Positions 1,519 to 25,725 of a stretch of 64,000 nucleotides of DNA are shown here, in pieces. The notes beneath the pieces are model-generated. The model was not told the origin of the DNA. It searched no databases and saw only the letters and a program-made list of their open reading frames with translations. Each line of letters begins with the position of its first letter. Position 1 is the stretch's first letter. Position numbers and translations under genes: made by a program. Source of the DNA: a virus. Location of the stretch: positions 37,770 through 101,769 of IMG/VR virus record IMGVR_UViG_3300032285_003360; one strand, written 5' to 3'.

Positions 1519-1522
1519 GGGT

Positions 1523-1530
1523 CAAATATA
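1523..1530 (-). promoter_or_regulatory. Bacteroidota-type -7 promoter box TATATTTG (probable leaderless transcript)
   Basis: Exact TAnnTTTG match on the - strand just upstream of the ATG at 1518. Confidence 0.55.
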
Positions 1531-1573
1531 CTAAAAAAAATTTGGAATATACTTATATAAAAATAACATAATT

Positions 1574-1708
1574 ATGGCTAAAGCAAAAGGTGGTAAATCA
1601 GCCTCTTCAGTAAAAGTCACTTTTGGTAAAAGAAAAGGTGGCAAGTCTCAAAAAAGTTGGGGCCCGAAGGCTCAAAAACCAAAGACCTATAGAGGTCAAG
1701 GTCGCTGA
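1574..1708 (+). CDS. 44-aa Lys/Gly-rich basic peptide ending YRGQGR (not in ORF track)
   Basis: MAKAKGGKSASSVKVTFGKRKGGKSQKSWGPKAQKPKTYRGQGR*; A-rich leader, followed directly by a terminator hairpin. Confidence 0.7.
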   Translation: MAKAKGGKSASSVKVTFGKRKGGKSQKSWGPKAQKPKTYRGQGR

Positions 1709-1710
1709 GG

Positions 1711-1740
1711 AAAGAACCACCCTTTATGGGTGGTTTTTTA
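1711..1740. terminator. bidirectional intrinsic terminator
   Basis: AACCACCC-tttat-GGGTGGTT stem followed by a T-run, between the convergent 44-aa ORF and thyA. Confidence 0.75.
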
Positions 1741-2877
1741 ATTTGATAAGGGTGCTTTAATCGATGGATGTGATTTATAACCCACAATCTCAAAGTCGTC
1801 AGGTCTCCAATATTTGGTCTTTTCAATGATTGATGGTTCATCACCTTTTATCTTAACTGATGGTAAACCAAAAGGTTCTCTTGTAATTTGCTCCTTAGCT
1901 TGTTCAATATGGTTCAAATAAAGATGCGTATCCCCCAAATTTCCCACCAATTCGTCTGGCAACATATTAACTTCTCTGGCAATTATTTCCAATAATAACG
2001 CATAAGAAGCGATATTAAAGGGTAATCCTAAGAATGTATCTACTGAACGCTGATTCCACATTAAAGAGATTGCTCTTGTTGGGGTTGGTTCATAATATGT
2101 GTCATCGTAGTTAGGTAAATTATTTGGGTCAAAGAATCTCTCCATACCTGTTTCATAATTCTTAACAAACCAAACGTTGTATCTTTCTTCCGCACTTAAT
2201 TCTCTTGTATAAACTTGAAATCCATAATGACAAGGTGGTAAAACCATCTTGTTTAATTCACCTACATTCCAAGCTGATACCATCAATCTTCTACTATCAG
2301 GATTAGTTTTAAGGTCATTGATTAGATTTTGGATTTGGTCGGTATCTTTTGGACTCCAATCTTCTTGCCAATATTGGCTAGTATCTACACTCTCCCATTC
2401 TTTCCATTGTTTACCATAAATTGGTCCTAATTCGCCCCACTCCTTAGCAAAATCATTATCTGTTTTGATTTTGTTAATGAATTCTTCTTGTGTCAATGGA
2501 ATTAAATCATCAGGGTTACTAAACATATTTTCAATATGTGGTTGCATCCCCATTATATCACCACATTTATATCCATCAATAAGTTCGTTTACTTTTTTAG
2601 AATAGTTTTTATAAGCATCTCCGTCCCAAATGTGACATCCATTCTCAACAAGATATTGAATGTTAGTTTCTCCACGAAGGAACCATAATAACTCAGTCAC
2701 CATTGTCTTCCACGCCATCTTCTTGGTGGTTAACAATGGAAACCCTTGTCTCATGTTATGACGTATTTGTCTTCCGAACACCGATATAGTTCCAGTGCCA
2801 GTTCTATCAGTTTTAGTGACACCATTATCCAAGATGTCTTGTAGCAAATCTTGATATTTTTTATCAATTGTATTCAT
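1738..2877 (-). CDS. thyA: thymidylate synthase with two insertions
   Basis: DRTGTGT, ELLWFLRG, LGPIYGKQW, SRRLMVSAWN, catalytic LPPCH, NQRSVD.FLGLPFNIASY, GDTHLYLNH. Confidence 0.97.
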   Translation of the reverse strand: MNTIDKKYQDLLQDILDNGVTKTDRTGTGTISVFGRQIRHNMRQGFPLLTTKKMAWKTMVTELLWFLRGETNIQYLVENGCHIWDGDAYKNYSKKVNELIDGYKCGDIMGMQPHIENMFSNPDDLIPLTQEEFINKIKTDNDFAKEWGELGPIYGKQWKEWESVDTSQYWQEDWSPKDTDQIQNLINDLKTNPDSRRLMVSAWNVGELNKMVLPPCHYGFQVYTRELSAEERYNVWFVKNYETGMERFFDPNNLPNYDDTYYEPTPTRAISLMWNQRSVDTFLGLPFNIASYALLLEIIAREVNMLPDELVGNLGDTHLYLNHIEQAKEQITREPFGLPSVKIKGDEPSIIEKTKYWRPDDFEIVGYKSHPSIKAPLSN

Positions 2878-2878
2878 A

Positions 2879-3982
2879 TTAATAATTGTCTAAATTATTT
2901 GTAAATTCATAATACCATTTTGACATGTGGTGTCTCCAAACGTCTTCATTACGATATTCTTTTTCCCATTGAAAAAATATGTCGGGTATGAATTTTTTAT
3001 TTTTAAGAATATCCAATGCAACATTATAATTATATTCGGCAGTATCCTTTAGCGCTTCACGTATTTCTAAAGGTGAATATTTTTCACAAACTCTTTTAAT
3101 TTCTTTAACATGTTCTTGAGCCCTAATTATATCATCATCAACCGAATCAAATGTATAATCAAATATTTCATCATAAAGTTTAAAACCAAAATTAGTTAGA
3201 ACTTTGTTAACATTTTTTGCACCATAAGTTATAAATGGTTTTCTATGAAGAATTGGAATGAATGTTTTTTCAGTTAAGAATATCACATCATACGTGCTTT
3301 CTGTAACTTGTTGGAACGCTGATTCCAAGTAGGATGGATAAATTTCCCAATAGTTACCTTGATTAACGACATCGGCGGGGTCGGGATAATTTGTTGGGAC
3401 ATTAAAATTGGTAAAATCAAAATGGTTTCTTGTGAACCAATTGAATTGTTTAATGTTAAACTCAGTTGAAAAACATGAATATAAATTCGTTTCTAATAGA
3501 CCAAAGTCTTTTAATAATTGTAAAATATACATCCTATGAACACGAGGAAGTCTATTATAACTTGTAAAATAATATTTCGGATTGTAATTTAAAGTGGGCG
3601 GCGTTACAAAACGATTTTGGTAATTTGCGAAAGTATGATATAAAAAATATAACGTAAAGAAATGTCTATTTGGATTTAAATGTCTAAAAAAATCTTGTCT
3701 ATTATAAAAATCTTTTTCTTTATCGTAATCACCATAACCTGAGTATATTATGTCGACCTTTGTTTGACTCCAATCGTTAAGATATTCAGAATAATTTTTC
3801 AAAAGCACAGGTTGAATTTCAGGTAAACAAAGAATTTTTAAATCATTGTTCCTATTATGACATTTGTCAATAATATCCAAGAATGTGGTATTAAAGGTAA
3901 ACGACCATATATAATAAGGGTAATTCTTATCGACACTGGTATTATATTTCACAAATCCTTCGTTTTGAATTGCCGGTGTCAT
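2879..3982 (-). CDS. hypothetical protein, possible GT-B/GT10-like glycosyltransferase C-terminal domain
   Basis: NRLPRVHR, VTEST..FLTEKTFIPILHRKPF..G, GFKLYDEIFDYTFD motifs resemble the TEK motif of GT10-like proteins. Confidence 0.4.
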   Translation of the reverse strand: MTPAIQNEGFVKYNTSVDKNYPYYIWSFTFNTTFLDIIDKCHNRNNDLKILCLPEIQPVLLKNYSEYLNDWSQTKVDIIYSGYGDYDKEKDFYNRQDFFRHLNPNRHFFTLYFLYHTFANYQNRFVTPPTLNYNPKYYFTSYNRLPRVHRMYILQLLKDFGLLETNLYSCFSTEFNIKQFNWFTRNHFDFTNFNVPTNYPDPADVVNQGNYWEIYPSYLESAFQQVTESTYDVIFLTEKTFIPILHRKPFITYGAKNVNKVLTNFGFKLYDEIFDYTFDSVDDDIIRAQEHVKEIKRVCEKYSPLEIREALKDTAEYNYNVALDILKNKKFIPDIFFQWEKEYRNEDVWRHHMSKWYYEFTNNLDNY

Positions 3983-3983
3983 C

Positions 3984-4172
3984 TTATAATATTTTTTGAA
4001 TTTGGAAACCCGCCATAAATGTTAACCACCTTACAGTTAAACCCCATGAAGGTGAGGTTTTACCATCATCATAATATTCATTCTTGTCATAATAAAAAAC
4101 TATAGCAGGTAAAATAAACCAGTGATGTCTTTTATTATAAATGAAAAAGTCTTTATAATATTTCTTACCCAT
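3984..4172 (-). CDS. small hypothetical protein
   Basis: 62-aa ORF tightly packed (1-nt gaps) within the operon. Confidence 0.6.
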   Translation of the reverse strand: MGKKYYKDFFIYNKRHHWFILPAIVFYYDKNEYYDDGKTSPSWGLTVRWLTFMAGFQIQKIL

Positions 4173-4173
4173 C

Positions 4174-4353
4174 TTATTTCTTTTTTGGTTTTTTAAAATA
4201 ATCTAAAACTAAATTGATTGAACCTAAGCTAATTGCACCCCAACCAAAATATTTTTCTATTTGCGGGTTAGCATCAGGAACACCGTATTTCTCAATAAGA
4301 ATACCAGTTAATATCATCATTATGTAAATGATTTCTTTGATTTTTATTTGCAT
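4174..4353 (-). CDS. 59-aa two-TM membrane protein (not in ORF track)
   Basis: MQIKIKEIIYIMMILTGILIEKYGVPDANPQIEKYFGWGAISLGSINLVLDYFKKPKKK*; TAAATTTG -7 box at 4368-4375. Confidence 0.65.
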   Translation of the reverse strand: MQIKIKEIIYIMMILTGILIEKYGVPDANPQIEKYFGWGAISLGSINLVLDYFKKPKKK

Positions 4354-4410
4354 AATATTGTTTTTAACAAATTTACAAAAAAATTTTGATATTCCGAAAT
4401 AATTATAGTT

Positions 4411-4776
4411 ATGTCAGTTATAATCGGTAATAAACATTTCCCCGCAGAATACATGTTAACTCCTGAACAAACTCGTCAGGGAATGATGGGTCGCGAAAGC
4501 TTGGAAGGTTGTATGGTATTCAAAATGGGTAAAGGTCACCATTCTTTTTGGATGAAGGATTGTGTTATCCCACTTGATATTGTGTTTGTTAGTAATAACC
4601 GAATAAGCCGCATCCACCCAAACTGTCCTCCTGCTGACCCACATGCAATGAATCCACCACGTTACACCGGTATTGGTGACCACGTGATTGAATTCCCTGC
4701 AGGCATGGCTTCAGACTTTAGAGTTGGTGACAGAGTTTCTATGTATTTGGGGACACCTCAGAATCCTGTTCAATAG
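4411..4776 (+). CDS. DUF192-family protein
   Basis: TPEQTRQGMMGR, GCMVF, SFWMKDCVIPLDIVF, VIEFPAG..GDRV. Confidence 0.85.
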   Translation: MSVIIGNKHFPAEYMLTPEQTRQGMMGRESLEGCMVFKMGKGHHSFWMKDCVIPLDIVFVSNNRISRIHPNCPPADPHAMNPPRYTGIGDHVIEFPAGMASDFRVGDRVSMYLGTPQNPVQ

Positions 4777-5428
4777 TCCATTTACTATAATCATACTTTA
4801 CTTTAGGGTTGGTCTTTTGGAACACCCAAAAATAACTATGATATTTTCTTGCATGTTGTTGTCTAGTCCACTTTGTCCCAAAACTATTAACCCTTGTGTT
4901 TGAATTTAAGATAAATAAATCTTTAGGATAGAATCCAAGCTCCATGGCCATATTCATAATCATAGAATGGGTAAAATGATTTTTACCGCTTGATACGGTA
5001 TCTTGACATTTCATTACAACAAAACCGTCCTTAGCGCAAATTCTGTATAACTCCTTAAGTGTTAAGTAATAGTTCTTCATCAAATCTTCATAAGTTGTAT
5101 ACCCTTCAAATCGTTTAGCCATAAGGGAACTACCTTCCTTGTTACTTTTATATGTCGCACCCGCAATAACAAACGGAGGATCATACATAATACTATTCAT
5201 TGAACCGTCAGCAAATGGTAAATTCTCTGAGCTCGCTTGAATTACACTATCATTGGCCGGATACAAATCTGATTTATTGATGGGTGATGGTAAGTCCTTC
5301 CAAAAGGATCCTTTTGAATATGTGCAATCCAAATCAAATTGCTCGATTTCATAAAGAAACATTATGTTTTTAATTGTTTCGTAATTAGAATTGTAGATGC
5401 TTTTTACGGGTTTAAAATCTTTATCCAT
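4739..5428 (-). CDS. amino (N6-A/N4-C)-type DNA methyltransferase-like protein
   Basis: DLDCTYSKGSFW SAM-binding-like motif, IMYDPPF catalytic motif, ELYRI..K.G.VVMKCQD. Confidence 0.7.
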   Translation of the reverse strand: MDKDFKPVKSIYNSNYETIKNIMFLYEIEQFDLDCTYSKGSFWKDLPSPINKSDLYPANDSVIQASSENLPFADGSMNSIMYDPPFVIAGATYKSNKEGSSLMAKRFEGYTTYEDLMKNYYLTLKELYRICAKDGFVVMKCQDTVSSGKNHFTHSMIMNMAMELGFYPKDLFILNSNTRVNSFGTKWTRQQHARKYHSYFWVFQKTNPKVKYDYSKWTIEQDSEVSPNT

Positions 5429-5462
5429 TTCTTGACATTTTAATTTTTATGTGTTATATTTT

Positions 5463-5494
5463 AAAATATAAGGAATTAAATTCAATAAACCAAA
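5463..5494 (-). promoter_or_regulatory. Bacteroidota-type promoter TTTG-N20-TATATTTT
   Basis: caaa at 5491-5494 and aaaatata at 5463-5470 on + strand, upstream of the MTase; adjoins a divergent TTGACA-N17-TATATT at about 5432-5460 on +. Confidence 0.5.
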
Positions 5495-5517
5495 ATATTT
5501 ATTAAAAAACACACACT

Positions 5518-5649
5518 ATGGGATGCGGATGCAAAAAAAAACAAGAACAACCAGTGGTTCAACAACCACCTCAATCAATTAACCTACAAAACGTAGCAGC
5601 ACCAACGGTGACTCAACCTGCAGCTCCTGCTCCACCTCAAAACCCTTAA
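5518..5649 (+). CDS. 43-aa peptide MGCGCKKK plus Pro/Gln-rich tail (not in ORF track)
   Basis: MGCGCKKKQEQPVVQQPPQSINLQNVAAPTVTQPAAPAPPQNP*; TATTTAT motif 16 nt upstream. Confidence 0.65.
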   Translation: MGCGCKKKQEQPVVQQPPQSINLQNVAAPTVTQPAAPAPPQNP

Positions 5650-5653
5650 TAAT

Positions 5654-5709
5654 ATATCGTCGATATAAACGATAATTAGCTTTATCACGAATATCGACGA
5701 TATTTTTTT
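5654..5709. repeat. 13-bp perfect inverted repeat / long hairpin (terminator or operator)
   Basis: ATATCGTCGATAT (5654-5666) ... ATATCGACGATAT (5691-5703) with inner GATAA/TTATC pairing, followed by a T-run. Confidence 0.7.
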
Positions 5710-5742
5710 ATTCAGGAAATATATAAACATGTATATATTATT

Positions 5743-5940
5743 ATGGAAGCAAAAAGCAAATTAACGAGCGTTCACGTCTTGGAAGACGTTTACAATAAAT
5801 TTAAAGTAAATTCAATTGAAGGAAGTTTATCATTTCAAAAATTTGTAAACCGTTCAATGGATTTATATAATAAAGACGAAAATTTTCGTAACAAGGTAAA
5901 CAACCACATTGGATTGGCTGCTACCGGTTCTAAGTATTAA
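5743..5940 (+). CDS. small ribbon-helix-helix-like DNA-binding protein
   Basis: LTSVHV alternating strand, then helix (EDVYNKFK) and helix (SFQKFVNRSMDLY); first gene of the operon. Confidence 0.5.
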   Translation: MEAKSKLTSVHVLEDVYNKFKVNSIEGSLSFQKFVNRSMDLYNKDENFRNKVNNHIGLAATGSKY

Positions 5941-5942
5941 TC

Positions 5943-7298
5943 ATGGCTAAAAAAAGAATATTATTATTAAGCGACGACTTAAGAATGACGTCTGGTATTG
6001 CCACGATGTCAAAAGAGATTGTCTTAGGGACAGTTGATAAATTTGATTGGGTTCAATTAGGTGCAGCTGTTAGTCATCCTGAGTTCGGTAAGATTGTTGA
6101 TATGAACGACGATGTTAGAAAAAGAACTGGTGTTGAAGATGCGTATGTAAGAATTTATCCAAACAATGGTTATGGTAACATTGGTATCATAAGAAAATTG
6201 ATAAAGGACGAACAAATCGATGCGATATTACATTTCACTGACCCGCATTATTGGCAATGGTTATATGATGCTGAGCATGAGATAAGACAAACGACGCCAA
6301 TATTATATTATCATATATGGGATAACATTCCTGACCCTGTTTATAATAGAAACTATTATGAATCATGTGATTGGTTAGGGTGTATTTCTAAATTAACATA
6401 TGGTATTGTTCATCGTGTTGGTAAATTAACAACTCACAACACATTTAAACCATTAGAAGATTGGCAGATAAGTTATGTCCCACACGGTATCAATGAAAAA
6501 GTTTTTAAACCAACTGAAGTGAGTGATGAAATAAAACAACTTGTTACAGGTGGTAAAGAATATGATTATATCTTATTTTATAACAACAGAAACATTAGAC
6601 GTAAACAACCATCCGATGTAGTTTATTCATATAGATTATTTTGTGATAGTTTGCCAAAGAATAAAGCTGACAAGTGTTTATTACTTATGCACACAGCACC
6701 TGTTGATGAGAATGGAACTGATTTGAATGCTGTGATTGAAGCACTTTGTCCTTACGATGTTCGATTCACTAACATGAAACTTGAACAAGAGAAGTTAAAT
6801 GAGATTTATAATTTTGTTGATTGCACAATCAATCTTGCGAATAACGAAGGATTTGGTTTGACAACAGCAGAAAGTATTATGGCGGGGACACCAATCATTG
6901 CTAACGTTACCGGTGGTTTGCAAGACCAAATGGGATTTGGTTATACTGCTGATGATTACATTACATTTGGTTCGTTACATAATGTAAGAACACATGGTGA
7001 AACATTACATGGTGATTGGGCACACCCTATTTGGCCAAGTGCAATTAATATAAATGGTTCTGTTCCAACACCTTATATCTTTGATGATAGAGTTGATGAT
7101 AACAAAGTTGCTGATGCGATTATGGAATCATATCAATTGGGTAAGAAGAAAAGAAAGAAGAATGGATTGAAGGGTAGAGAGTGGGCTATTGAGAATATAT
7201 CATCTAAGGTGATGTGTGATAAATTGACTGAAGGAATTGAAACAACGTTAGTAAATTTTAAACCTCGTCAAAAATTTGATTTTTATAAAATTGTATGA
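5943..7298 (+). CDS. GT-B (GT4-like) glycosyltransferase
   Basis: ILLLSDD..SG, VPHGIN, NRNIRRKQP, NEGFGLTTAES.MAGTPII...GGL. Confidence 0.9.
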   Translation: MAKKRILLLSDDLRMTSGIATMSKEIVLGTVDKFDWVQLGAAVSHPEFGKIVDMNDDVRKRTGVEDAYVRIYPNNGYGNIGIIRKLIKDEQIDAILHFTDPHYWQWLYDAEHEIRQTTPILYYHIWDNIPDPVYNRNYYESCDWLGCISKLTYGIVHRVGKLTTHNTFKPLEDWQISYVPHGINEKVFKPTEVSDEIKQLVTGGKEYDYILFYNNRNIRRKQPSDVVYSYRLFCDSLPKNKADKCLLLMHTAPVDENGTDLNAVIEALCPYDVRFTNMKLEQEKLNEIYNFVDCTINLANNEGFGLTTAESIMAGTPIIANVTGGLQDQMGFGYTADDYITFGSLHNVRTHGETLHGDWAHPIWPSAININGSVPTPYIFDDRVDDNKVADAIMESYQLGKKKRKKNGLKGREWAIENISSKVMCDKLTEGIETTLVNFKPRQKFDFYKIV

Positions 7299-8551
7299 GT
7301 AAACCAACATTATTATTTAGAGGACCAGTAAAAACAAGAAGCGGCTACGGTGCGCATTCGAGAGACGTTTTAAAAGCATTATATGAAATGGATGTATTTG
7401 ATATAATGATTGATAGTTGTCCGTGGGGGAACACACCTATGACAGCATTAGAAGATAACTTATTCCACAAGTGGATTGAGTCTAACATTGTTACATCATT
7501 AACGTCACAACCGGACATCTACATACAAGTTACCGTTCCAAATGAATTCCAAAGAGTTGGTAAATTTAACATTGGTATAACTGCAGGTATTGAAACAACT
7601 GTCGCTCCTAAAAATTGGATAGATGGTTGTAACAAAATGGATTTGATTATTGCTACATCAAGTTTTTCTAAGGATGTTTTATTATCAACTGTTTATAATG
7701 AAACGGAAAAGAATACTGGTAAGTTAGTTGGTCAATATAGAATTGAAAAACCAATTGAAGTTTTGTTTGAAGGTGTTGACCTTAACATTTATAACAATGA
7801 ATCTACAGGTTTAGATATTGACATCAAAGAAGATTTTGCTTATCTTTTTGTAGGTCATTGGTTGAAGGGAGATATTGGACAGGATAGAAAAGATGTTGGT
7901 ATGATGATTAAAGTATTTGCGGAAGCATTTAAGAATGAAGAAAACAAACCCGCATTGGTATTAAAGACATCAGCTGCGAGCTTTTCAATTAAGGAGAGGG
8001 AGAATATGAGAAAAAGAATACAAGACCTTGTATCAAGTATTGAAAATCCTCCATCTGTTTATCTTTTGTTCGGTGAATTAACTGATGCTGAAATGAATGA
8101 TTTATATAACCACCCAAAGATTAAATCAATGGTATCAATAACTAAAGGTGAAGGATTTGGAAGACCTTTACTTGAATTCTCAATGACAGGTAAACCAATC
8201 ATCGCATCTAATTGGTCAGGGCATAAAGATTTTTTACCAATGGATAAAGCGGTTATGGTTGGTGGAAAATTAACTGAGGTTCATGCAAGTGCGATTGATG
8301 ATTTTATTATTAAAGGTTCTAAATGGTTCACAGCTAACTATAATGAATTTGCTGAAGTATTAAAGTTGGTTCAAAAAGATTACGAAAGATTTGTTGAGAA
8401 GTCTGAGGAATTAAGAAAAGAAAACGGAGATAAGTTTTCATTTGAATCAATGAAGGTTACATTCAAAAATATTATTGAAAAATATAATAAAGTGACGCAA
8501 GCACCTGTTCAGACAAAATTAATTCTACCTAAGTTAACTAAAATAAAATAA
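7295..8551 (+). CDS. GT-B (GT4-like) glycosyltransferase
   Basis: SGYG, RKDVG, GEGFGRPLLEF...GKPIIASNWSGH. Confidence 0.9.
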   Translation: MSKPTLLFRGPVKTRSGYGAHSRDVLKALYEMDVFDIMIDSCPWGNTPMTALEDNLFHKWIESNIVTSLTSQPDIYIQVTVPNEFQRVGKFNIGITAGIETTVAPKNWIDGCNKMDLIIATSSFSKDVLLSTVYNETEKNTGKLVGQYRIEKPIEVLFEGVDLNIYNNESTGLDIDIKEDFAYLFVGHWLKGDIGQDRKDVGMMIKVFAEAFKNEENKPALVLKTSAASFSIKERENMRKRIQDLVSSIENPPSVYLLFGELTDAEMNDLYNHPKIKSMVSITKGEGFGRPLLEFSMTGKPIIASNWSGHKDFLPMDKAVMVGGKLTEVHASAIDDFIIKGSKWFTANYNEFAEVLKLVQKDYERFVEKSEELRKENGDKFSFESMKVTFKNIIEKYNKVTQAPVQTKLILPKLTKIK

Positions 8552-8552
8552 C

Positions 8553-8801
8553 ATGGCAAAGAAAAAGACTCAACCAAAAGTTGAGATGAATATCGAAAAA
8601 GTAGTTCAGGAATATATTCCATGTGAATGGGTGATTCAGTTTGATAATGATGAACCCAAAGTATTTGCATCTTCCGATGTTAATTCATCTTCACATGAAG
8701 TGGTTTTTAAAATACCTAACACCAGTGAGTCGCACGTAACCTTTACTGACCCAATATCAAATAAGCGATTTAGTATATACGCAAGACCAAAAACAAGTTA
8801 A
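8553..8801 (+). CDS. hypothetical protein (paralog of 8802-9041)
   Basis: shares QF.xxEP.VFA and K.F..[YF]ARP with the next ORF. Confidence 0.7.
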   Translation: MAKKKTQPKVEMNIEKVVQEYIPCEWVIQFDNDEPKVFASSDVNSSSHEVVFKIPNTSESHVTFTDPISNKRFSIYARPKTS

Positions 8802-9041
8802 ATGGATTTTAAGTTTTTTAAAAGTGAAGAATTAATACACGATAACTTTATTATATTACAACCTACAAATTTTGCACCTGAAAATGCTGAATTTTGTTTT
8901 CAATTTGGTGATGAGGAACCTGTTGTATTTGCTAATGGGCCAAATGAATGTCAAATTCGTATAAGTCCAACACCAGGTGGTAGTATGATATTCAATGATA
9001 ATGGTAAAGTTTTTAAATTATTCGCAAGACCAAGAGTATGA
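8802..9041 (+). CDS. hypothetical protein (paralog of 8553-8801)
   Basis: QFGDEEPVVFA...KVFKLFARP; translationally coupled. Confidence 0.7.
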   Translation: MDFKFFKSEELIHDNFIILQPTNFAPENAEFCFQFGDEEPVVFANGPNECQIRISPTPGGSMIFNDNGKVFKLFARPRV

Positions 9042-9466
9042 TGCACAAGTTTAAATTTTTTGAGGGGTTTCTTGAGAACGTATATGTGTTTGACACCGCT
9101 AATATTGTTGCGAGACATGTTCAGCATGGTGAAAGAACTTTACGTGCAACGTGGAGACCTGAACCAATAGAAGATATCTATTCACATCATGGGATAGATG
9201 CTGAGGCGGAATTAACAAGAATGCTATCAGCACAATGGGCACAAGAGATTGACAATGATATCATTAGACGATTAAGAGAAATCATTGGTGAAGAAAATGA
9301 AACCGATGATGAAGTATTAAGAGGTATTGAAGTTTTAAATGGTAGAGTTGAAGAGAGTGTTGATACAATCAGAAGAGTAACAAGAAGAATAAATGGTGGG
9401 GACGATTTAGCAGATAACGCCGACTATCTTGGTAGATATTTGGATATAGGAGGAGATAGAGCATGA
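9038..9466 (+). CDS. mini-protein containing a T4 gp23-like major capsid protein segment
   Basis: Residues 32-80 (ERTLRATWRPEPIEDIYSHHGIDAEAELTRMLSAQWAQEIDNDIIRRLR) align without gaps to the conserved gp23-family motif R.L[KR]A.[YW]..E..QD....HG.DA[DE]AEL...L......EI. Confidence 0.7.
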   Translation: MMHKFKFFEGFLENVYVFDTANIVARHVQHGERTLRATWRPEPIEDIYSHHGIDAEAELTRMLSAQWAQEIDNDIIRRLREIIGEENETDDEVLRGIEVLNGRVEESVDTIRRVTRRINGGDDLADNADYLGRYLDIGGDRA

Positions 9467-9648
9467 GATGTGAAAGACATAGTTGGGACACAACTGACGC
9501 TGAATGGTGTTGGAAATGTGAAGAATTAACAATAAACGAAAATAAAAAAAAATATGAAGATAAGTTTTGCGATAACAGTTTGCAACGAGATAAACGAGAT
9601 AAGGAAATTAGTTCCGTTTCTGTTGGACCACAAGAGACCTCAAGATGA
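9463..9648 (+). CDS. possible small Cys/His (CxxH...CxxC) peptide
   Basis: ATGA-coupled to the previous gene; the C-terminal half overlaps the GT2 gene out of frame. Confidence 0.35.
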   Translation: MRCERHSWDTTDAEWCWKCEELTINENKKKYEDKFCDNSLQRDKRDKEISSVSVGPQETSR

Positions 9649-10297
9649 AATTGTAATCTTATATGATGAAAATAATGGTGATGCTCGCGTATTAGATTTC
9701 CTTTTACCTTATAACAAATTACCTAATGTTCAAACATGGAGAAGTTATGATTTTGATAGAAATTTCGCTAATTGGAAAAACTTATTAAACAGTTATTGTA
9801 AAGGTGATTTTATTTATCAATTGGATGCAGATGAAATGATTAGCTCTTATATGGTAGAAAATTTACATACAATACTGGAAATGAATGATAAGGTTGACTT
9901 ATATTTCGTTCCAAGAATCAATACCGTAAATGGTTTAACTGAAGAAGATGTTATTAAATGGGGATGGAATTTATCTAAAATTGAAAGTCAAATAAATGAA
10001 AAAATTATAGACACTGAAAGTGAAGAATACAAATTATTAAAAAATGGTGGTTTTATAATTGAAGAAACGGATACTATGGGAAAAGTAAAAATTAAATATT
10101 ACATGCCAATAATAAATGCTTACGACTACCAAGGTCGCATATATCGCAAGAACATGACATGGTATGGTAAGGTTCATGAAAGAATCATTGGTGGTGAGAA
10201 ATTTGCATCATTACCCGATAATGAAGAATATTGTATTCAACATCACAAAGACATCGATAGACAAAGAAAACAAAACGATTTATACAGCAAAATATGA
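9554..10297 (+). CDS. GT2-family glycosyltransferase
   Basis: ISFAITVCNE, FANWKN, YQLDADE, DYQGRIY, W.GKVHE. Confidence 0.9.
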   Translation: MKISFAITVCNEINEIRKLVPFLLDHKRPQDEIVILYDENNGDARVLDFLLPYNKLPNVQTWRSYDFDRNFANWKNLLNSYCKGDFIYQLDADEMISSYMVENLHTILEMNDKVDLYFVPRINTVNGLTEEDVIKWGWNLSKIESQINEKIIDTESEEYKLLKNGGFIIEETDTMGKVKIKYYMPIINAYDYQGRIYRKNMTWYGKVHERIIGGEKFASLPDNEEYCIQHHKDIDRQRKQNDLYSKI

Positions 10298-10836
10298 AAA
10301 CACTAAAAGAAATTTATGGAGGTCATCAAAACAATGAGCATTATGGTGACAAAGGAACTGTTCATACATACATCGATGTTTATGAAGACATTCTATCAAA
10401 GTATAGGGAGAATAGCACTGTTTTAGAAGTGGGTATTTTTCATGGTCATTCTTTAAAAATGTGGAATGAATATTTTATTAATTCAAAAATAATCGGTGCA
10501 GATATCACTGACGCTTATTTAAGAAATACAATTAAAGAAGAGAAATATAATATAATAATTGCTGATGCCACCAAGGAAAGTTTTTTAGATAAATTAGGTG
10601 ACGACACATTTGATGTCATTATCGATGATGGTAGTCATAAAATCAAAGACCAAGTTAAAACATTTAATTTATTAAAAACTAAAATGAATAAGGGCGGTCT
10701 TTATGTGATTGAAGATATTTCTAATCTTGATGCCGATATTGAAGTATATAAGGAATTACACGATAATATTGAAATAATTGATAACAGACACATCAAGAAT
10801 AGATTTGATGACGTTTTAATACTATATAAATTTTAA
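10294..10836 (+). CDS. class I SAM-dependent (sugar O-) methyltransferase
   Basis: DKGTVHTY, VLEVGI..G.SL..W, FDVIIDDGSH, GGLYVIED. Confidence 0.85.
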   Translation: MKTLKEIYGGHQNNEHYGDKGTVHTYIDVYEDILSKYRENSTVLEVGIFHGHSLKMWNEYFINSKIIGADITDAYLRNTIKEEKYNIIIADATKESFLDKLGDDTFDVIIDDGSHKIKDQVKTFNLLKTKMNKGGLYVIEDISNLDADIEVYKELHDNIEIIDNRHIKNRFDDVLILYKF

Positions 10837-10839
10837 AAT

Positions 10840-11568
10840 ATGAGTTTAATAAGAACAAAAGGCGAAATCGATGTTACATTTTATAAAAATGAACAAGACA
10901 AACATCAATTTGGTAATGACAATGAATGGGTTAATGAACAAACCGAATTAAATTTGGGTAATATTGAATGTAGAATTGATATCCCCGCTTGGCAACAACG
11001 ATATGAATATGAAGCAGGAATGTTAAATACTATTATTCAAACAAATAACTTTAAAAAGATTATTGAATTAGGTTCAGGACCAGGTGCGTTAGGTCAAAAA
11101 ATGATGGAAAAAATTGAATTGGATTATACATTCATAGACCAACCAGGTGCAAAAAAAATATTTGAGGACAGGAAATACAAAGGTAAATTTTTAGTTAAAG
11201 ATTTGATGAATGGTTTTGATACCTCTGATTTAGATGCTAACTATGATTTTTTAATTACCAACGATTTTTTGGAGCACATTTATAACCCTTCTATTGTTGT
11301 TCAAGAATCTTATAAATTGATTAGACCAAATGGTAAAATGTTTGTGAGTGTTCCAAATTGGAGAATGGGTCACACTTTTATTTATAGGGGTTTATTTGAT
11401 TTCGATAATTTCGTATATTTTATGCACACACATGGTTTTAAAATAAGTGGATTATATGAATCACCATTAAAGTGTGGTTATTCATCCAAATTATCTTCTG
11501 AATCGGAAATGGACGATAATTTAATAACGAGTTGGAATTGGTATATGTTGTTTGATAAAATAAATTAA
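10840..11568 (+). CDS. class I SAM-dependent methyltransferase
   Basis: IIELGSGPG, DFLEHI.NP, L.RPNG...VSVPN. Confidence 0.85.
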   Translation: MSLIRTKGEIDVTFYKNEQDKHQFGNDNEWVNEQTELNLGNIECRIDIPAWQQRYEYEAGMLNTIIQTNNFKKIIELGSGPGALGQKMMEKIELDYTFIDQPGAKKIFEDRKYKGKFLVKDLMNGFDTSDLDANYDFLITNDFLEHIYNPSIVVQESYKLIRPNGKMFVSVPNWRMGHTFIYRGLFDFDNFVYFMHTHGFKISGLYESPLKCGYSSKLSSESEMDDNLITSWNWYMLFDKIN

Positions 11569-11569
11569 T

Positions 11570-12568
11570 ATGAAAAGAGTTTTAATAACGGGTGTTGTGG
11601 GGTTACTTGGTTCAAGACTTGCTGATTTTTTAATCGACACACAAGAAGACATTTATGTAGTTGGTATTGATGATTTAAGTGGTGGATATATTGAGAACGT
11701 TAACCCAAAGGTTAAATTTTATCAAACAAATCTTCTTGAGAAATCAATCTCAGTAATTTTTGAAATTGAAAAACCTGACTACGTTTATCATTTCGCAGCA
11801 TATGCGGCTGAGGGATTATCACCCTTCATTAGAAGTTACAACTATCAAAACAATCTTGTTGCAACATCTCGTATTGTTAATGAATGTATTAAACATGATG
11901 TTAAAAGATTGATATTCACATCAACATTAGCGGTGTATGGTCATGGGTATGGTGGAGTATTTGATGAAAATCAAACGCCAAAACCAATTGATCCCTATGG
12001 TGTTGCAAAATATGGTTGTGAAATGGATATACAGATTGCTGGTGAGCAGCATGGACTTGATTGGTGTATCATTAGACCTCACAATGTATATGGCCGTAAT
12101 CAGAACATATGGGACAAATATCGTAATGTATTGGGTATTTGGATGTATCAACATCTTAATGGTGAACCAATGACAATATTCGGTGACGGTAATCAAACAA
12201 GAGCTTTCAGTTATATTGACGATTCATTGGAGCCATTATGGCACGCAGCAATAGTTCCGCAAGCATCAAAACAAATTATTAATTTAGGAGGTATCGAAAG
12301 TCATTCAATTCGTGAAGCAAATAATATTCTTTTAGATATTGTAGGTGATGGAAATGTTGTATATTTGGAGCAAAGACATGAGGTTAAACATTCCATTCCA
12401 ACTTGGCAAAAATCAGTAGACTATTTGGGATTTGAACATAAAACAAATTTACATGATGGTTTAAGTCAAATGTGGGAATGGGCTAAAGAACAACCTAATC
12501 GTGATAGATTTGTGTGGAGCAATTATGAATTAGATAAAGGAATTTATTCGTTTTGGAAAACAAAGTAA
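11570..12568 (+). CDS. NAD-dependent nucleotide-sugar epimerase/dehydratase
   Basis: LITGVVGLLGS, HFAA, FTSTLAVYG, PYGVAK (YxxxK), RPHNVYG, GDGNQTRAF. Confidence 0.93.
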   Translation: MKRVLITGVVGLLGSRLADFLIDTQEDIYVVGIDDLSGGYIENVNPKVKFYQTNLLEKSISVIFEIEKPDYVYHFAAYAAEGLSPFIRSYNYQNNLVATSRIVNECIKHDVKRLIFTSTLAVYGHGYGGVFDENQTPKPIDPYGVAKYGCEMDIQIAGEQHGLDWCIIRPHNVYGRNQNIWDKYRNVLGIWMYQHLNGEPMTIFGDGNQTRAFSYIDDSLEPLWHAAIVPQASKQIINLGGIESHSIREANNILLDIVGDGNVVYLEQRHEVKHSIPTWQKSVDYLGFEHKTNLHDGLSQMWEWAKEQPNRDRFVWSNYELDKGIYSFWKTK

Positions 12569-12569
12569 T

Positions 12570-13148
12570 ATGAAAATAGAATTTATAATACCAACATACA
12601 ATAGACCGTATAAGTTGATGACAATTTTATCATCAATCAAGTCACAAAGCATTGATGCTTGGAAGATACACGTTGTTGCAGATGCAATGTATGAAGGTTA
12701 TGATGAAGTTAAAAATATCTTTATTAATGACCCAAGAATTAGGTTTAGTGAGCTTAATGGTCCACATATGGATTATGGTCACACAGCAAGAAATTATGGT
12801 TTGGAGAATGCGAGTGAAGAATGGGTTGTGATGAGTGGTGACGACAACTATTATGTTCCAGTGTTCTGTGAGTTATTTTTACAATCAATTAAAGATGAAC
12901 CAAATGTTAATTTTGTTTATTGTAATATGGTTCATAATTGGGTTGACAATGATTACATACCAATTAGGTCTGTTCCGCAAATAAACGGGATTGATATCGG
13001 TAATTTTATGTCTAAAACCGAAAACGCTAAACAATTAAGATTAGACGCAAGTAAAGTGAATGCTGATGGTGTGTTTGTTGAAGAATATTTGCAAAAGTTT
13101 CCCGCAGACATTTTACATATAGATAAATTATTATACGTGCACAATTAA
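12570..13148 (+). CDS. GT2-family glycosyltransferase
   Basis: IIPTYNRP, ARNYGL, GDDNYY. Confidence 0.88.
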   Translation: MKIEFIIPTYNRPYKLMTILSSIKSQSIDAWKIHVVADAMYEGYDEVKNIFINDPRIRFSELNGPHMDYGHTARNYGLENASEEWVVMSGDDNYYVPVFCELFLQSIKDEPNVNFVYCNMVHNWVDNDYIPIRSVPQINGIDIGNFMSKTENAKQLRLDASKVNADGVFVEEYLQKFPADILHIDKLLYVHN

Positions 13149-13149
13149 T

Positions 13150-13944
13150 ATGGTTAAGATTATATCAGGAGTTTCACATGTTGGTGGTTCAACTATTATA
13201 TTAATAAATCTAACAAATTTATTTAATAGTAAAGGTATTGACACAACATTCTATGGCCCACATGATTTTCATATGGGTAAATGTAAATCGAAACAACTTA
13301 AAGATTTAAAGTTTAAAAAGAATGACATTGTAATGGCTCATCATTTGAAATATGATGAAAGACCAAACGTTAAAAGAATTGTTTTGGCTTGTCATGAAAA
13401 ATGGTGGTTTGAGGTTGCGGATTGTCCGATGTATTGGGATACTGTTGTATTCAATCATGAAGAACAAAGAAACTATCATCACAGATATCAAGGACCGTTT
13501 GTTTATATCCCAAATCCAAAGGATGTTAATCAACCATTATATCCAATCGATAAACCTGAATTAGATTTAGTTGCGGGTGTTATCGGTAGCATCGAAGAAA
13601 GAAAACAAACACATATATCAATACAAAAAGCATTAGATGATGGTTGCGAAAAGGTATTGGTTTATGGTAAAGTAATGGACGCTGAATATTATAAAAAGTA
13701 TTGTAGGAAATATTATTTTCACCCTAACGTTCAATTCATGGATTATGCTGAAACTAAACAAGCTATGTATAATAGCATTGGTAGAGTTTATCATATGTCA
13801 ATGGGTGAGGTATCGTGTTTGGTTAAAGATGAATGTCAATATACGAACACCAAATTCTTTGGAACTGAACAAACAAATCACATTGTCTCTGATTTAACAA
13901 ATGATGAAATATTTGAACTTTGGAGAGACGTATTAAAATTTTAA
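13150..13944 (+). CDS. GT-B-like glycosyltransferase
   Basis: GGST N-terminal loop, CHE, IPNP, GVIGSIEERKQ. Confidence 0.65.
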   Translation: MVKIISGVSHVGGSTIILINLTNLFNSKGIDTTFYGPHDFHMGKCKSKQLKDLKFKKNDIVMAHHLKYDERPNVKRIVLACHEKWWFEVADCPMYWDTVVFNHEEQRNYHHRYQGPFVYIPNPKDVNQPLYPIDKPELDLVAGVIGSIEERKQTHISIQKALDDGCEKVLVYGKVMDAEYYKKYCRKYYFHPNVQFMDYAETKQAMYNSIGRVYHMSMGEVSCLVKDECQYTNTKFFGTEQTNHIVSDLTNDEIFELWRDVLKF

Positions 13945-13946
13945 AA

Positions 13947-15053
13947 ATGGATATATCATTTGTATTAGCTGTATATAACAAATTAGATTTAACAAAAGAT
14001 TGTTATCGATTACTTAGGGAGAAATACCCTGAGGCCCCATTAGTTATTAGTAGTGGTGGTTCATCGGATGGAACAAAGGAATGGTTGGAATCATTGGATG
14101 ATGATTATCTTTCATACATTCATGATGATGATAGATTAACGTTCTCCGACACATACAACGCGGGTATTAAACTTGTTGATACTGAGAAGGTTGTGTTGAT
14201 TCATAATGATATGGTTATTGGTGAAGGATTCTTGGAATCAATTGAAAGATTATTAACACCCAATATGTTATTATCATATACAACAATTGAACCACCAATA
14301 TTCAAAGGTCATCAAAGACCTGGTAAAGTATTGTTAGACTTGGGAACATCTTTCCATAACTTTAATCATATTCATTTTAACAACTATGTTCAACAATGGA
14401 ATCAAACAAATAATTTATACTCTGGTGCTGTATTCTTCATGAGTGGTTATAAGAAAATGTTTGAAGATGTTGGTGGATTTGATGGATTTAGTTTTGTTCC
14501 TTGCTTCTGTGAAGATGATGACTTTTTAATTCGTGCTAAATTAAAGGGTTACGAATTAAAGACTTGTGATAGTGCAATTACATATCACTTTGTTTCTCAA
14601 ACATCAAGATTCAGTGAGGAGATGAAAACCGATAGAGGAAGAATCGAAATGAATTCAAATAGAAACTTCATTAGAAAATGGGGAATATCAATTTCATCGT
14701 TTAATGAATTAAGATATTGGGAAGATAATGCGTTTAAGTTCAACACATTCAATATGGGTTTAACAACTCGTAACAAAAATAACATTCATATATTGGAACC
14801 TTTCTTTGATAAGATTAACTTGGGTGAGATACCTGAAGATTATATTGAGATGGAACAAAAGAATACTCGCTATGATTTAAGAAGTAAGTTCACATTGACT
14901 GAAACCGTGGATGTTATGATATATGAAACAAAACCATTTACGGATGAGGACCTTTACACATTACAAAAAATTAGATTATCATTACCCTATTACGAACCGG
15001 GTGAATACGAAAGTGGTAATATGAAGATAGAAATAAAAAAGGGACTTAATTAG
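13947..15053 (+). CDS. GT2-family glycosyltransferase (start re-assigned to ATG 13947)
   Basis: ISFVLAVYN, SSDGT, YNAG, IHNDM, VGGFD..F...EDDDF..R..L.G. Confidence 0.88.
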   Translation: MDISFVLAVYNKLDLTKDCYRLLREKYPEAPLVISSGGSSDGTKEWLESLDDDYLSYIHDDDRLTFSDTYNAGIKLVDTEKVVLIHNDMVIGEGFLESIERLLTPNMLLSYTTIEPPIFKGHQRPGKVLLDLGTSFHNFNHIHFNNYVQQWNQTNNLYSGAVFFMSGYKKMFEDVGGFDGFSFVPCFCEDDDFLIRAKLKGYELKTCDSAITYHFVSQTSRFSEEMKTDRGRIEMNSNRNFIRKWGISISSFNELRYWEDNAFKFNTFNMGLTTRNKNNIHILEPFFDKINLGEIPEDYIEMEQKNTRYDLRSKFTLTETVDVMIYETKPFTDEDLYTLQKIRLSLPYYEPGEYESGNMKIEIKKGLN

Positions 15054-15067
15054 TCCCTTCTTTTTTT
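15035..15067. terminator. bidirectional terminator at convergent gene ends
   Basis: AAAAAAGGGACT-taatt-AGTCCCTTCTTTTTTT spanning the overlapping stops at 15046-15053. Confidence 0.75.
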
Positions 15068-15513
15068 ATTAATTTAAACAACACCATGTAATTGTCTTTG
15101 GTGTCTCCCGCTTTTTTCAAATCCTCTTTAGTGATTTCAGGATATTCAATTTCTTTTTCTTGGTCAAGTAATGGATTGTATTCCGCTTCGAATTTTAAAT
15201 AAGCATCGTTGAATGTTCTTCCTGTCACATTACCTTCAGCATCAACTAATTCGTTGAACATCTTAACCATGATGCCACCCTTACCGTTATCTTCGCCATA
15301 CTTTAAGATTAACTCATCTCTAAGTTCTTCAACCTTTTTTCTTTCCTTTGATAATTTCTCACTTAATTCTTTAAGCTCATATTTTAAGATGACTGAAAGG
15401 TTTTGCTTTAAAAAACCGTTATAAATAACTTCATTAGTTTCGGGATTATTGAACCCGTTGATTTCACTTTCCAATTGTAGGATATCTCCTAATTTAAGTG
15501 TAATTTTTTCCAT
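15046..15513 (-). CDS. hypothetical phage protein (coiled-coil, tail-region)
   Basis: 155-aa ORF directly downstream of fibre genes. Confidence 0.6.
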   Translation of the reverse strand: MEKITLKLGDILQLESEINGFNNPETNEVIYNGFLKQNLSVILKYELKELSEKLSKERKKVEELRDELILKYGEDNGKGGIMVKMFNELVDAEGNVTGRTFNDAYLKFEAEYNPLLDQEKEIEYPEITKEDLKKAGDTKDNYMVLFKLIKKEGTN

Positions 15514-15570
15514 ATAATTTTAATTCTATTTAGTTAAAAAATAAATAATATTGTTTAAAATGTAAATGAG

Positions 15571-15777
15571 TTATAATATAATAATTTTATACACTCTACC
15601 AGTAGGATCAGCGGCTTCTAATTCTTGTTTTTTAACTTCAGCCTCCTCTAATGTATCAAAATCATCAAAGGTGTCATCATCGTTTAATTTTTGAACCCAT
15701 ATTTGTCTTTTTTCCCAATTTGGGTCAGATTGATTATTATCGATTGGTAGAAATTGTTTTATTATTCTGTAAGTCAT
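15571..15777 (-). CDS. hypothetical protein
   Basis: 68-aa ORF downstream of the fibre gene. Confidence 0.6.
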   Translation of the reverse strand: MTYRIIKQFLPIDNNQSDPNWEKRQIWVQKLNDDDTFDDFDTLEEAEVKKQELEAADPTGRVYKIIIL

Positions 15778-24713: not shown

Positions 24714-25721
24714 TTAACTTAAAACTATTGCGCCTGATCCACTCCACATCGGTGCACCTGAAGACAATGACCTCGGCGCATCAAATATTTGTCTTATTGT
24801 TTCACTACCATAATCAATTCTATCACTATGTGCATTTTGCACACCACTATAACCACCCGCAAAATACCCGTGGTTTTGTCCCATCACACCCGATTGTTCT
24901 GAATTTCCTAATGTTTGTTTATATAATATACCAATCCATGTGCTTGTGCTATTTAAAAACTTTGCACAGTTTTGACCAGTTGATGTTCCAACATAATTTT
25001 GGTCCCCACACATAAAACATTTACCATCTTTTGTATTAACTGGTTTTTGCCAATAACCTGGGCTACCAAATCCTGCAACACCACTGTATGTGTTTGTTGT
25101 AGATAATACAGCCCAACTTTCAGATGATGTTGTCATTTTTTGTGTTGTTGTTCCATAGTTAACCCACGAATAATATTTGTCAAACCATCCTGATGTTTCT
25201 TGTGTGTCAGGTGCACTACCGCTTGATAATGCTGCAGCCGTTTCAGTTGCAAACACCCATCTATCCCAATAACCTCCGTTTGCGTAACCACCATGATATG
25301 CTTTAGTTCCATAAGCGGTTCCATCTGTGTTGAATCCAACACCTTCTTGAACTGACCATGGGTTCGCACCACCATAGTTTTTACTTCCACATGTTGAGGT
25401 TGTTTCAGCTGCAAAATTAAATTTTTGCATACCTGTTGCACTATCTCTTTGTGCATTACCACAATAACCATTCAATGCTGAACTTGACCACGTTCCATAT
25501 TTTGTTGCATATGGTAATGTGTTTGAAGCTGTGCTCCAAGCATCAGTTGCATTTGCAATTTTAGTTACAGTATTCCATATAGAACTACTAACATAACCAC
25601 CGCCAATATATCCTTTTGATAATGTTAATCCATGTTTATAATCATCAGTGAAAACTTGTTTTAAAACTGTTCCATTTTTTGATATGGTTCCTGTAAAATT
25701 TATATTTCCGTTTACTATCAT
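24714..25721 (-). CDS. kelch/beta-propeller-like virion protein, paralog 2 (start re-assigned to 25721, MIVNGN)
   Basis: same motifs as neighbours; N-terminus MIVNG matches paralog 3. Confidence 0.65.
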   Translation of the reverse strand: MIVNGNINFTGTISKNGTVLKQVFTDDYKHGLTLSKGYIGGGYVSSSIWNTVTKIANATDAWSTASNTLPYATKYGTWSSSALNGYCGNAQRDSATGMQKFNFAAETTSTCGSKNYGGANPWSVQEGVGFNTDGTAYGTKAYHGGYANGGYWDRWVFATETAAALSSGSAPDTQETSGWFDKYYSWVNYGTTTQKMTTSSESWAVLSTTNTYSGVAGFGSPGYWQKPVNTKDGKCFMCGDQNYVGTSTGQNCAKFLNSTSTWIGILYKQTLGNSEQSGVMGQNHGYFAGGYSGVQNAHSDRIDYGSETIRQIFDAPRSLSSGAPMWSGSGAIVLS

Positions 25722-25725
25722 AATA

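Follow-up and report, generated by a model that had tools for sequence, protein, structure and literature searches.

A stand-alone gene derived from the gp23-type capsid protein is conserved within a glycosylation operon of T4-like jumbo phages

The window analyzed here, a 64,000-nucleotide stretch of viral DNA (positions 37,770 to 101,769 of IMG/VR record IMGVR_UViG_3300032285_003360), carries in the middle of a glycosylation operon an open reading frame (ORF), designated mini-gp23 (9038..9466, + strand), which encodes an acidic protein of 142 residues (isoelectric point 4.8, net charge -12) with a central segment homologous to gp23, phage T4's major capsid protein (MCP). The gene is intact, stands alone, derives from the capsid protein and is no debris, as had been proposed in a first-pass annotation made from the sequence alone; this conclusion is supported by a significant profile match, 34 further intact loci and low ratios of nonsynonymous to synonymous substitution rates (dN/dS). 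Mini-gp23 can be regarded as an MCP-derived paralogue or a viral mimic protein; the odds that it represents something categorically new are modest.

The capsid-derived gene and its family

The MCP-derived core of mini-gp23 (residues 26-83; 9113..9286, + strand) consists of the strand R.LRA.W, the acidic helix HGIDAEAEL and the first half of the spine helix, and contains at residues 33-79 (nt 9134-9274) the gp23-type motif to which the annotation had drawn attention. The core matches the Pfam family PF07068 (Gp23) with an E-value of 6.1e-11 and a score of 42.8 bits, compared to a gathering score of 24.4 bits, and aligns to positions 141-198 of the 376 positions of the profile, so that the ORF covers only ~15% of it. 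All 41 members of the mini-gp23 family tested match PF07068. The ORF also matches PHROG 138 'major head protein' (E=1.2e-9), and a profile made from 55 MCPs of the clade hits it with E=1e-16, which is the sole significant match among the 504 ORFs of the 101.8-kb record (hereafter G000), an IMG/VR contig estimated to be 31% complete and containing no full MCP. The flanks of the core, which the annotation had considered unrelated to the capsid protein, are indeed foreign to it at both ends of the ORF, since the family profile has 101 positions, of which only positions 21-80 are aligned by full MCPs of 500-680 residues.

The foreign parts comprise an N-terminal tag, MMHKFKFFEG (9038..9067, + strand), in which no family member departs from F5, F7 and G10; an acidic helical insertion (residues 84-114; 9287..9379, + strand), which is confined to the long family variants; and a family-specific C-terminal module, TRRINGG...RA (9380..9463, + strand), with invariant N119 and G120 and a nearly invariant terminal A. 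No donor protein for the acidic insertion was found in 1.2 million residues of collected phage ORFs. A search of the ESM Atlas returned no match above noise.

Comparison with T4 gp23 and the vertex protein gp24 (PF07068; PDB 6uzc, 5vf3 and 7vrt) reveals homology over ~58 residues, within which the ORF has three elements in common with both proteins, namely, a strand of the P domain, the short acidic helix between capsomers and the beginning of the spine helix. Unlike T4 gp23, mini-gp23 lacks the A domain, the insertion domain, the N-arm and the P loop, its gene is located outside the head module, and its product carries the tag and a foreign C-terminus. The AlphaFold2 model of the protein (predicted local distance difference test score, pLDDT, of 51) is disordered over residues 1-53 and helical thereafter, with no beta-sheet; the model and the alignment leave no room in the 142-residue ORF for the whole of the HK97 fold, which comprises the N-arm, the P domain including its P loop, and the A domain.

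A length-restricted search recovered 52 clusters of homologues of 80-170 residues, each with a precomputed Gp23 match, and an unrestricted search of 1.84 billion representatives yielded 266 matches, many of which are to short proteins whose alignment begins at residue 1. Scans of IMG/VR with motif-specific DNA patterns, which were used since general scans returned mostly full MCPs, identified 34 loci beyond the window, each with an intact copy of 69-108 residues; the carriers are jumbo phages with genomes of 211-334 kb. The window ORF matches the family profile with E=2.4e-43 and carries the tag, core and TRRINGG end typical of the family, its 142 residues including the acidic insertion and a C-terminal extension. 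In a relative, G001 (316-kb record, estimated to be 95% complete), the mini gene coexists with a gene for a full 575-residue MCP, located ~180 kb away, and alignment of the two proteins of this phage shows 50% identity over 52 residues (E=2e-16). This coexistence, the level of identity and the near-invariance of the copied block in the clade's own MCPs indicate that the mini gene is an old partial duplicate and that mini-gp23 arose through partial duplication of the MCP gene of its own lineage.

A partial duplicate might in principle be pseudogene debris or a chance ORF, as could be suspected of a fragment of a larger gene that shows no fold alone. This reading is excluded. The reading frame is uninterrupted in the window, as originally noted, and each of the 35 copies (that of the window plus 34 others) is intact; close pairs (Nei-Gojobori method, pairs with dS of 0.05-0.7) display dN/dS values of 0.0-0.26, which argues against neutral evolution. 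Furthermore, the family is represented by the 52 clusters in public data, both its N- and C-terminal motifs are conserved, and its start and stop codons are coupled to the neighboring genes.

The copied capsid contact and related mini-proteins

Alignment with solved structures places the core at residues 257-308 (or to 312) of T4 gp23, the gp23 numbering being equal to the ORF numbering plus 231. The T4 sequence HGMDADAEL is the counterpart of the family sequence HGIDAEAEL, and this acidic helix is the best-conserved stretch of the family (H51, I53, D54, A55, E56, E58, L59 and T60). In T4, the head-length mutations A268V, A275T, D285V and D287V/N of gp23 map to a small region by a short negatively charged helix of the P domain (PMC9546572, Fang et al. 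2022). The acidic helix and a positively charged beta-strand region of the P domain form electrostatic inter-capsomer contacts at the quasi-threefold axes, which survive capsid expansion and serve as anchor points (PMC9546572). Residues A268, D285 and D287 correspond to A37, D54 and the invariant E56 of mini-gp23, respectively. Overall, the T4 segment shows ~40% identity. Nearly all residues of the block that are invariant in the MCPs are kept in mini-gp23, exposed and buried alike.

The segment is distinct from the part of gp23 involved in capsid sensing by Lit. The first-pass annotation had named Lit as an example of a defence system that detects capsid proteins, an example that does not fit this ORF: Gol, the trigger of Lit, spans 29 residues within the first quarter of gp23 (PMC3014915), whereas the core aligns to residues 257-308 and is thus not the Gol region. 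The Gol peptide of the Gol-Lit-EF-Tu exclusion system nevertheless offers a parallel in being a short, highly conserved gp23 segment that is a ligand by itself (PMC3014915). The Gol-equivalent motif, which aligns at ~98-124 of gp23, is located in the window phage on a separate tagged protein of 159 residues and elsewhere on mosaic proteins.

These mosaics correspond to the family search matches of 190-280 residues. In the mosaics, a core close to the N-terminus precedes the MCP N-terminal region (F-P-I-V-R-R-V...D-I-V-x-V-Q-P), a motif which in real MCPs precedes the core by ~250 residues, so that the order of the pieces is non-native. In three divergent loci (L219:11607-12711, - strand; L217:364-1366, + strand; L002:9736-10357, + strand), a gene of 78-95 codons for an MCP C-terminal piece lies directly 5' of the mosaic gene, and the products of both genes start with a related leader, R-H-D-F-[VL]-T-G. 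The mosaics are located in accessory regions without glycosyltransferases. On T4 gp23, the pieces correspond to residues 98-124 (N-arm, Gol region), 258-312 (core) and 432-479 (C-terminal piece). The T4 head-length mutations form three clusters, at residues 66-97, 268-287 and 457-461 (PMC9546572), which fall inside or beside the three pieces. Mini-gp23 belongs to a wider superfamily of phage mini-proteins made from pieces of the MCP capsomer periphery. Two points go beyond the first-pass annotation, namely, that relatives fuse or juxtapose the core with two other MCP pieces outside glycosylation modules and that the three pieces map to T4 regions holding or adjoining the head-length mutation clusters.

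The tagged 159-residue protein with the N-arm (Gol-equivalent) motif is encoded outside the window (G000 record 1006-1485, equivalent to L137:1009-1485, - strand) and has a counterpart of 155 residues in G001 (L134:1456-1923). The former matches the second module of the mosaics P0112 (E=5e-6) and P0080 (E=4e-5), and the latter that of P0112 (E=5e-10). The match of the 159-residue protein to the clade MCP profile is not significant (E=0.7), its N-arm motif being recognized via the mosaics alone. What is a single mosaic polypeptide elsewhere thus corresponds to two separately tagged proteins in the window phage, providing a Rosetta-stone link between them.

Glycosylation module and terminal tag

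The operon that the annotation had described as a glycosylation operon does encode two GT1 and three or four GT2 glycosyltransferases, two methyltransferases and an NDP-sugar epimerase/dehydratase. The module begins with a gene for a 65-residue protein, RHH-like by eye and with no Pfam match (5743..5940, + strand), followed by the conserved upstream partners of mini-gp23, two GT1 (GT-B) glycosyltransferases of 451 and 418 residues (5943..8551, + strand), and by genes for two paralogous small proteins: an untagged one of 82 residues with a basic N-terminus (8553..8801, + strand) and a tagged small beta protein of 79 residues that starts with MDFKFFK (8802..9041, + strand). Downstream of mini-gp23 are a Cys/His mini-ORF (9463..9648, + strand), a GT2 glycosyltransferase, which is the conserved downstream partner (9554..10297, + strand), and a variable operon tail encoding two methyltransferases, an epimerase/dehydratase, a GT2, a 264-residue unknown protein and another GT2 (10294..15053, + strand). 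The mini gene is hence situated in mid-operon among glycosyltransferases and not in the head-morphogenesis module. Translational coupling at both of its ends, part of the original description, is confirmed by ATGA overlaps with the gene of the 79-residue protein (9038-9041) and with the Cys/His mini-ORF (9463-9466), and the mini-gp23 stop and the next start overlap or are spaced by 2 nt in 19 of the 19 distinct loci examined. The Cys/His mini-ORF follows mini-gp23 in 10 of these 19 loci, the window among them; its conservation is limited to the first ~33 residues (C..H...C..C, to ~nt 9561), the tail overlapping the GT2 start in another frame, and the product is probably a zinc knuckle.

As far as flanking sequence is available, the window and the other 34 loci have their genes in the same order, namely, the RHH-like protein, a GT1 of ~455 residues, a GT1 of ~417 residues, the ~80-residue protein(s), mini-gp23, the optional zinc mini-ORF and a GT2 of ~206 residues, and it is only past the GT2 that gene content differs among loci. 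Identity across loci is 69-77% for GT1b, 54-63% for the GT2 and 30-54% for the mini-protein. The ~80-residue neighbors fall into two paralogous subfamilies, one of which has an MNFKFF start, and every locus has one or two of them. The 79-residue protein of the window is modeled as a small beta protein with pLDDT of ~80 over residues 28-79, and its fold has no match in the PDB (best Z-score 2.3).

The closest cultured phages, Flavobacterium phage vB_FspM_immuto and Microcystis phage Mel-JY01, share the GT1-GT1-slot-GT2 module at ~45% identity. Mini-gp23 is absent from both, and no cultured carrier was found. The slot is empty in Mel-JY01, and the protein occupying it in immuto, gp179, was rejected as a counterpart of mini-gp23, being an unrelated Zn-ribbon protein. 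Since the cultured phages hold a Zn-ribbon protein or nothing there, the slot, which is fixed in the jumbo lineage, varies across the wider clade. The glycosylation context emphasized in the annotation therefore holds for the window lineage, but not for the wider superfamily, in which mosaics occur without glycosyltransferases and cultured relatives have the glycosyltransferase module without the gene.

The gap upstream of the module contains the best sigma-70-like site of the region (5432..5460, + strand; 11 of 12 consensus positions, with an extended -10 element), and the module end is marked by a bidirectional terminator-like hairpin (15039..15059), both being consensus matches only. Overall, the number of promoter-like sites equals that expected by chance, and TATAAATA, the late promoter motif of T4, shows no enrichment (7 occurrences versus 13.6 expected). 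Between the promoter-like site and the first module gene lies a 43-residue ORF (5518-5649, + strand) which starts with MGCGCKKK and continues into a Pro/Gln-rich tail.

A further observation beyond the first-pass annotation is that the N-terminal tag of mini-gp23 is common to ~25 small ORFans of the phage. The core of the tag, x-F-K-F-F/L, recurs in ~25 other small ORFs of the record, and ~25 distinct ORFs start with M-x(0-4)-F-[KRI]-[FL]-[FL] (27 start positions, two of them being alternative starts of the same ORFs), where shuffled sequences give 0.45. The tag codons vary synonymously (TTT/TTC, AAA/AAG, TTT/CTC/TTA), which points to selection at the peptide level. The tagged ORFs are organized mostly in tandem overlapping arrays on the minus strand upstream of the window (record 106-15609, L137); many array junctions consist of an exact 14-nt overlap, with the stop codon TAA of the upstream gene inside the TTT-AAA tag codons of the next one, and a comparable tag array is present in G001. 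Three ORFs with hydrophobic N-termini (record 3710-4186, 4510-4977 and 25649-26137, - strand) carry F-K-F-F/L at the extreme C-terminus, suggesting that the tag works at either end. For 20 other ORFs with the tag, no Pfam or PHROG domain reached the cut-off. As a general theme of the tagged set, MCP mimicry is a weak lead: only the mini-gp23 ORF is significant with the clade MCP profile. One tagged ORF of 95 residues (L137:2477-2761, - strand) falls short of the cut-off for ribosome modulation factor, scoring 21.7 bits versus 27.9.

The internal proteins IPI-III and Alt of phage T4 bear an N-terminal capsid targeting sequence (CTS). As in that case, the tagged ORFs are unrelated small proteins encoded in arrays, whose sole common part is a terminal leader of ~8-10 residues. 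Unlike the CTS, however, the FKFF tag is not followed by a conserved (L/I)-x-E prohead-protease site, the residues that come next varying from one tagged ORF to another (among them E, R, S, H, D, N and K); it also occurs C-terminally on membrane-anchored proteins, and the mini gene resides in a glycosyltransferase operon and not beside head genes. The presence of the end-tag on ~25 ORFans suggests an undescribed sorting or recognition system of jumbo phages. A candidate reader of the tag, though only a candidate, is a two-ring ClpC/ClpA-like AAA+ protein of G001 (L138:1201-3216, - strand), which contains AAA, UVR motif, AAA_2 and ClpB_D2-small regions and has no N-domain. Hsp70 is not supported as the reader, since no HSP70 is encoded in the records G000 to G004. 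Regarding a possible identity of this lineage with the published 'moraphages' (PMC12619734), G001 has the ClpA-like gene and no DnaK. Literature searches that dealt with capsid decoys, with glycosylation of virions and with the jumbo lineage of the 'moraphages' (PMC12619734) yielded no description of mini-gp23 or the tag.

At the opposite end of the protein, the C-terminal module bears a weak resemblance to the end of a GH19-type endolysin of G001 (L223:952-1794, + strand), which has a peptidoglycan-binding N-terminus and ends with ...ITKRVNGGTIGLADR...; the C-terminus of the window protein is 37% identical to the last 35 residues of this endolysin (E=8e-4, pairwise BLAST). With the profile of the module, the endolysin is the top non-family match, yet not a significant one (E=0.28), the comparison of the module with GH19 by hhalign is weak (probability 6%), and none of 41 family members matches PF00182 (GH19) at E<=1.

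Possible functions of mini-gp23

The readings considered here include the three roles suggested in the first-pass annotation, namely, a decoy, an adaptor between glycosyltransferases and capsid, and an assembly or exclusion factor. Tentatively, the possibility that we favor is that mini-gp23 mimics the inter-capsomer contact and docks on the capsid protein, with a possible link to glycosylation. The protein, consisting of the terminal tag, the copy of the ~58-residue P-domain contact element, the acidic linker and the family-specific C-terminal module, would be largely unfolded alone. Its target would be the complementary P-domain surface, on capsomers not yet assembled or on proheads, to which it would attach by way of the copied strand and acidic helix, and the tag and the C-terminal module would tie the bound capsid protein to other factors. 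In this lineage, the most likely partners would be the co-expressed glycosylation enzymes, in view of the fixed place and the translational coupling of the gene within the glycosyltransferase operon, and mini-gp23 could then act as a capsid-directed adaptor or holdase. We infer the binding to MCP from the predicted disorder of the isolated protein, its strongly acidic character and the retention of nearly all MCP-invariant residues of the block, which suggest a mimic of an MCP contact element; the lack of an autonomous fold fits a segment that folds on its partner. This proposal is also supported by the invariant position in the glycosyltransferase module, with conserved coupling, while the genes past the GT2 turn over, and by the relatives in which the core is joined with the N-arm piece beside the gene for the C-terminal piece, all of these being elements of the capsomer periphery.

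Small accessory proteins are known to occupy inter-capsomer positions on HK97-fold lattices, including Sid of P4, CpmB of SaPIs, TcaP of PLE and Ccm of cf-PICIs, the latter being itself an MCP homologue. Unlike the phage-encoded mini-gp23, these proteins, which redirect capsid size or assembly, are encoded by satellites, act against the helper and are not known to be fragments of the helper MCP. As for the enzymes, phage glycosyltransferases modify capsid and tail-tube subunits in mycobacteriophages, according to the work of Freeman et al. 2023 as cited in PMC12619734. Such virion glycosylation represents a precedent for a capsid-directed glycosyltransferase operon. No MCP-derived adaptor is known from that system.

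Several considerations weigh against the proposed role. A mimic of a universal contact should disturb the assembly of the phage's own capsid unless its timing or dose is controlled. The link to the glycosyltransferases may be a matter of phylogenetic inertia, the lineage being not very deep, as judged from the 69-77% identity of GT1b across loci, and cultured relatives run the same module without mini-gp23, the mosaics being outside such modules altogether. The common tag implies a common reader, which a role in the capsid does not explain. Finally, the three pieces are the most conserved and hence most detectable parts of gp23, so that their correlation with contacts is partly a detection bias.

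The main rival to mimicry of the contact, a real if doubtful possibility, is that mini-gp23 serves as an immune bait or decoy, presenting the conserved MCP segment so as to occupy a capsid-reading host factor or deliver it to a tag-reading effector. The target would be an MCP-sensing defence protein, or else a host factor such as EF-Tu or a chaperone, and the effect would be to blunt abortive infection before late synthesis of MCP. Bacterial immunity commonly senses MCP (10.64898/2026.01.04.697583; Gol-Lit, PMC3014915), and the kept pieces, as the most conserved blocks of MCP, are the expected targets of sensors. That the mosaics have the core before the N-arm, contrary to the native order, suits independent motifs, the combination of a common tag with a variable payload in ~25 ORFans is typical of accessory or counter-defence arrays, and the best promoter-like site is of the sigma-70 type, not the T4-late type. 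The C-terminal module may even copy a second late protein, the GH19 endolysin, if the pairwise E-value of 8e-4 is taken as a guide, although the resemblance is not significant by profile. However, sensors of the Avs/Dsr type read folded MCP through extended interfaces (10.64898/2026.01.04.697583), which an unfolded piece of ~58 residues cannot reproduce, and a faithful copy of the trigger would be expected to activate a sensor rather than block it. Moreover, the segment differs from Gol, and a decoy function leaves the fixed place in the glycosyltransferase operon unexplained.

It is unlikely that mini-gp23 has no capsid role at all and is simply an FKFF-tagged client of a reader such as a phage Clp-type unfoldase, with the MCP helix being either an exapted spacer or part of a subunit that, together with the ~80-residue and zinc mini-proteins, serves the glycosyltransferases. 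The tag is invariant in the family, under peptide-level selection and able to sit at either terminus, G001 encodes the two-ring ClpC/ClpA-like AAA+ protein without an N-domain, and the three small proteins are always co-encoded and coupled, all of which speaks for this reading. That the family conserves almost all residues of the block that are invariant in MCPs, those of the acidic helix among them, is nonetheless hard to reconcile with a mere spacer, and other MCP pieces are retained alongside the core in independent lineages. An assembly regulator or exclusion factor is distinctly unlikely. Here, a dominant-negative or geometry-modulating fragment would compete at the quasi-threefold contact. 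Either the very large head would have its timing, curvature or size set in this way, or related phages that co-infect the cell would have their heads poisoned. That length-altering mutations of T4 map to the copied segment, that the three pieces of the superfamily coincide with or adjoin all three clusters of such mutations and that the carriers are jumbo phages of 211-334 kb are consistent with this idea, but the block is near-invariant in the MCPs of the clade, so that sequence divergence cannot prevent self-poisoning, and neither the tag nor the glycosyltransferase context is explained.

On a broader scale, T4-like jumbo phages might possess an undescribed class of 'capsomer-edge mimics', small proteins under selection that derive from three quasi-threefold elements of MCP and act on the capsid lattice, with FKFF as a sorting signal, a generalization that lies on the unlikely side. 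The elements in question would be the N-arm/Gol region, the acidic P-domain helix and the P-loop hairpin, sometimes split into separately tagged genes, and the end-tag would be read by a common phage factor. For very large heads, these proteins would set curvature, size or timing; alternatively, they would couple capsomers to modifying enzymes.

If mimicry is true, phages use cut-down copies of their shell protein to steer or modify assembly, or to blind capsid-reading sensors, and mini-gp23 would stand for a new class of small viral regulators; the ~58-residue peptide would then provide an experimental handle on the inter-capsomer contact that controls the size of T4-type heads. A practical consequence concerns g23-based surveys of T4-like phages, in which mini-gp23 genes, owing to their genuine Pfam Gp23 match, are at risk of being misannotated or miscounted as capsid genes.

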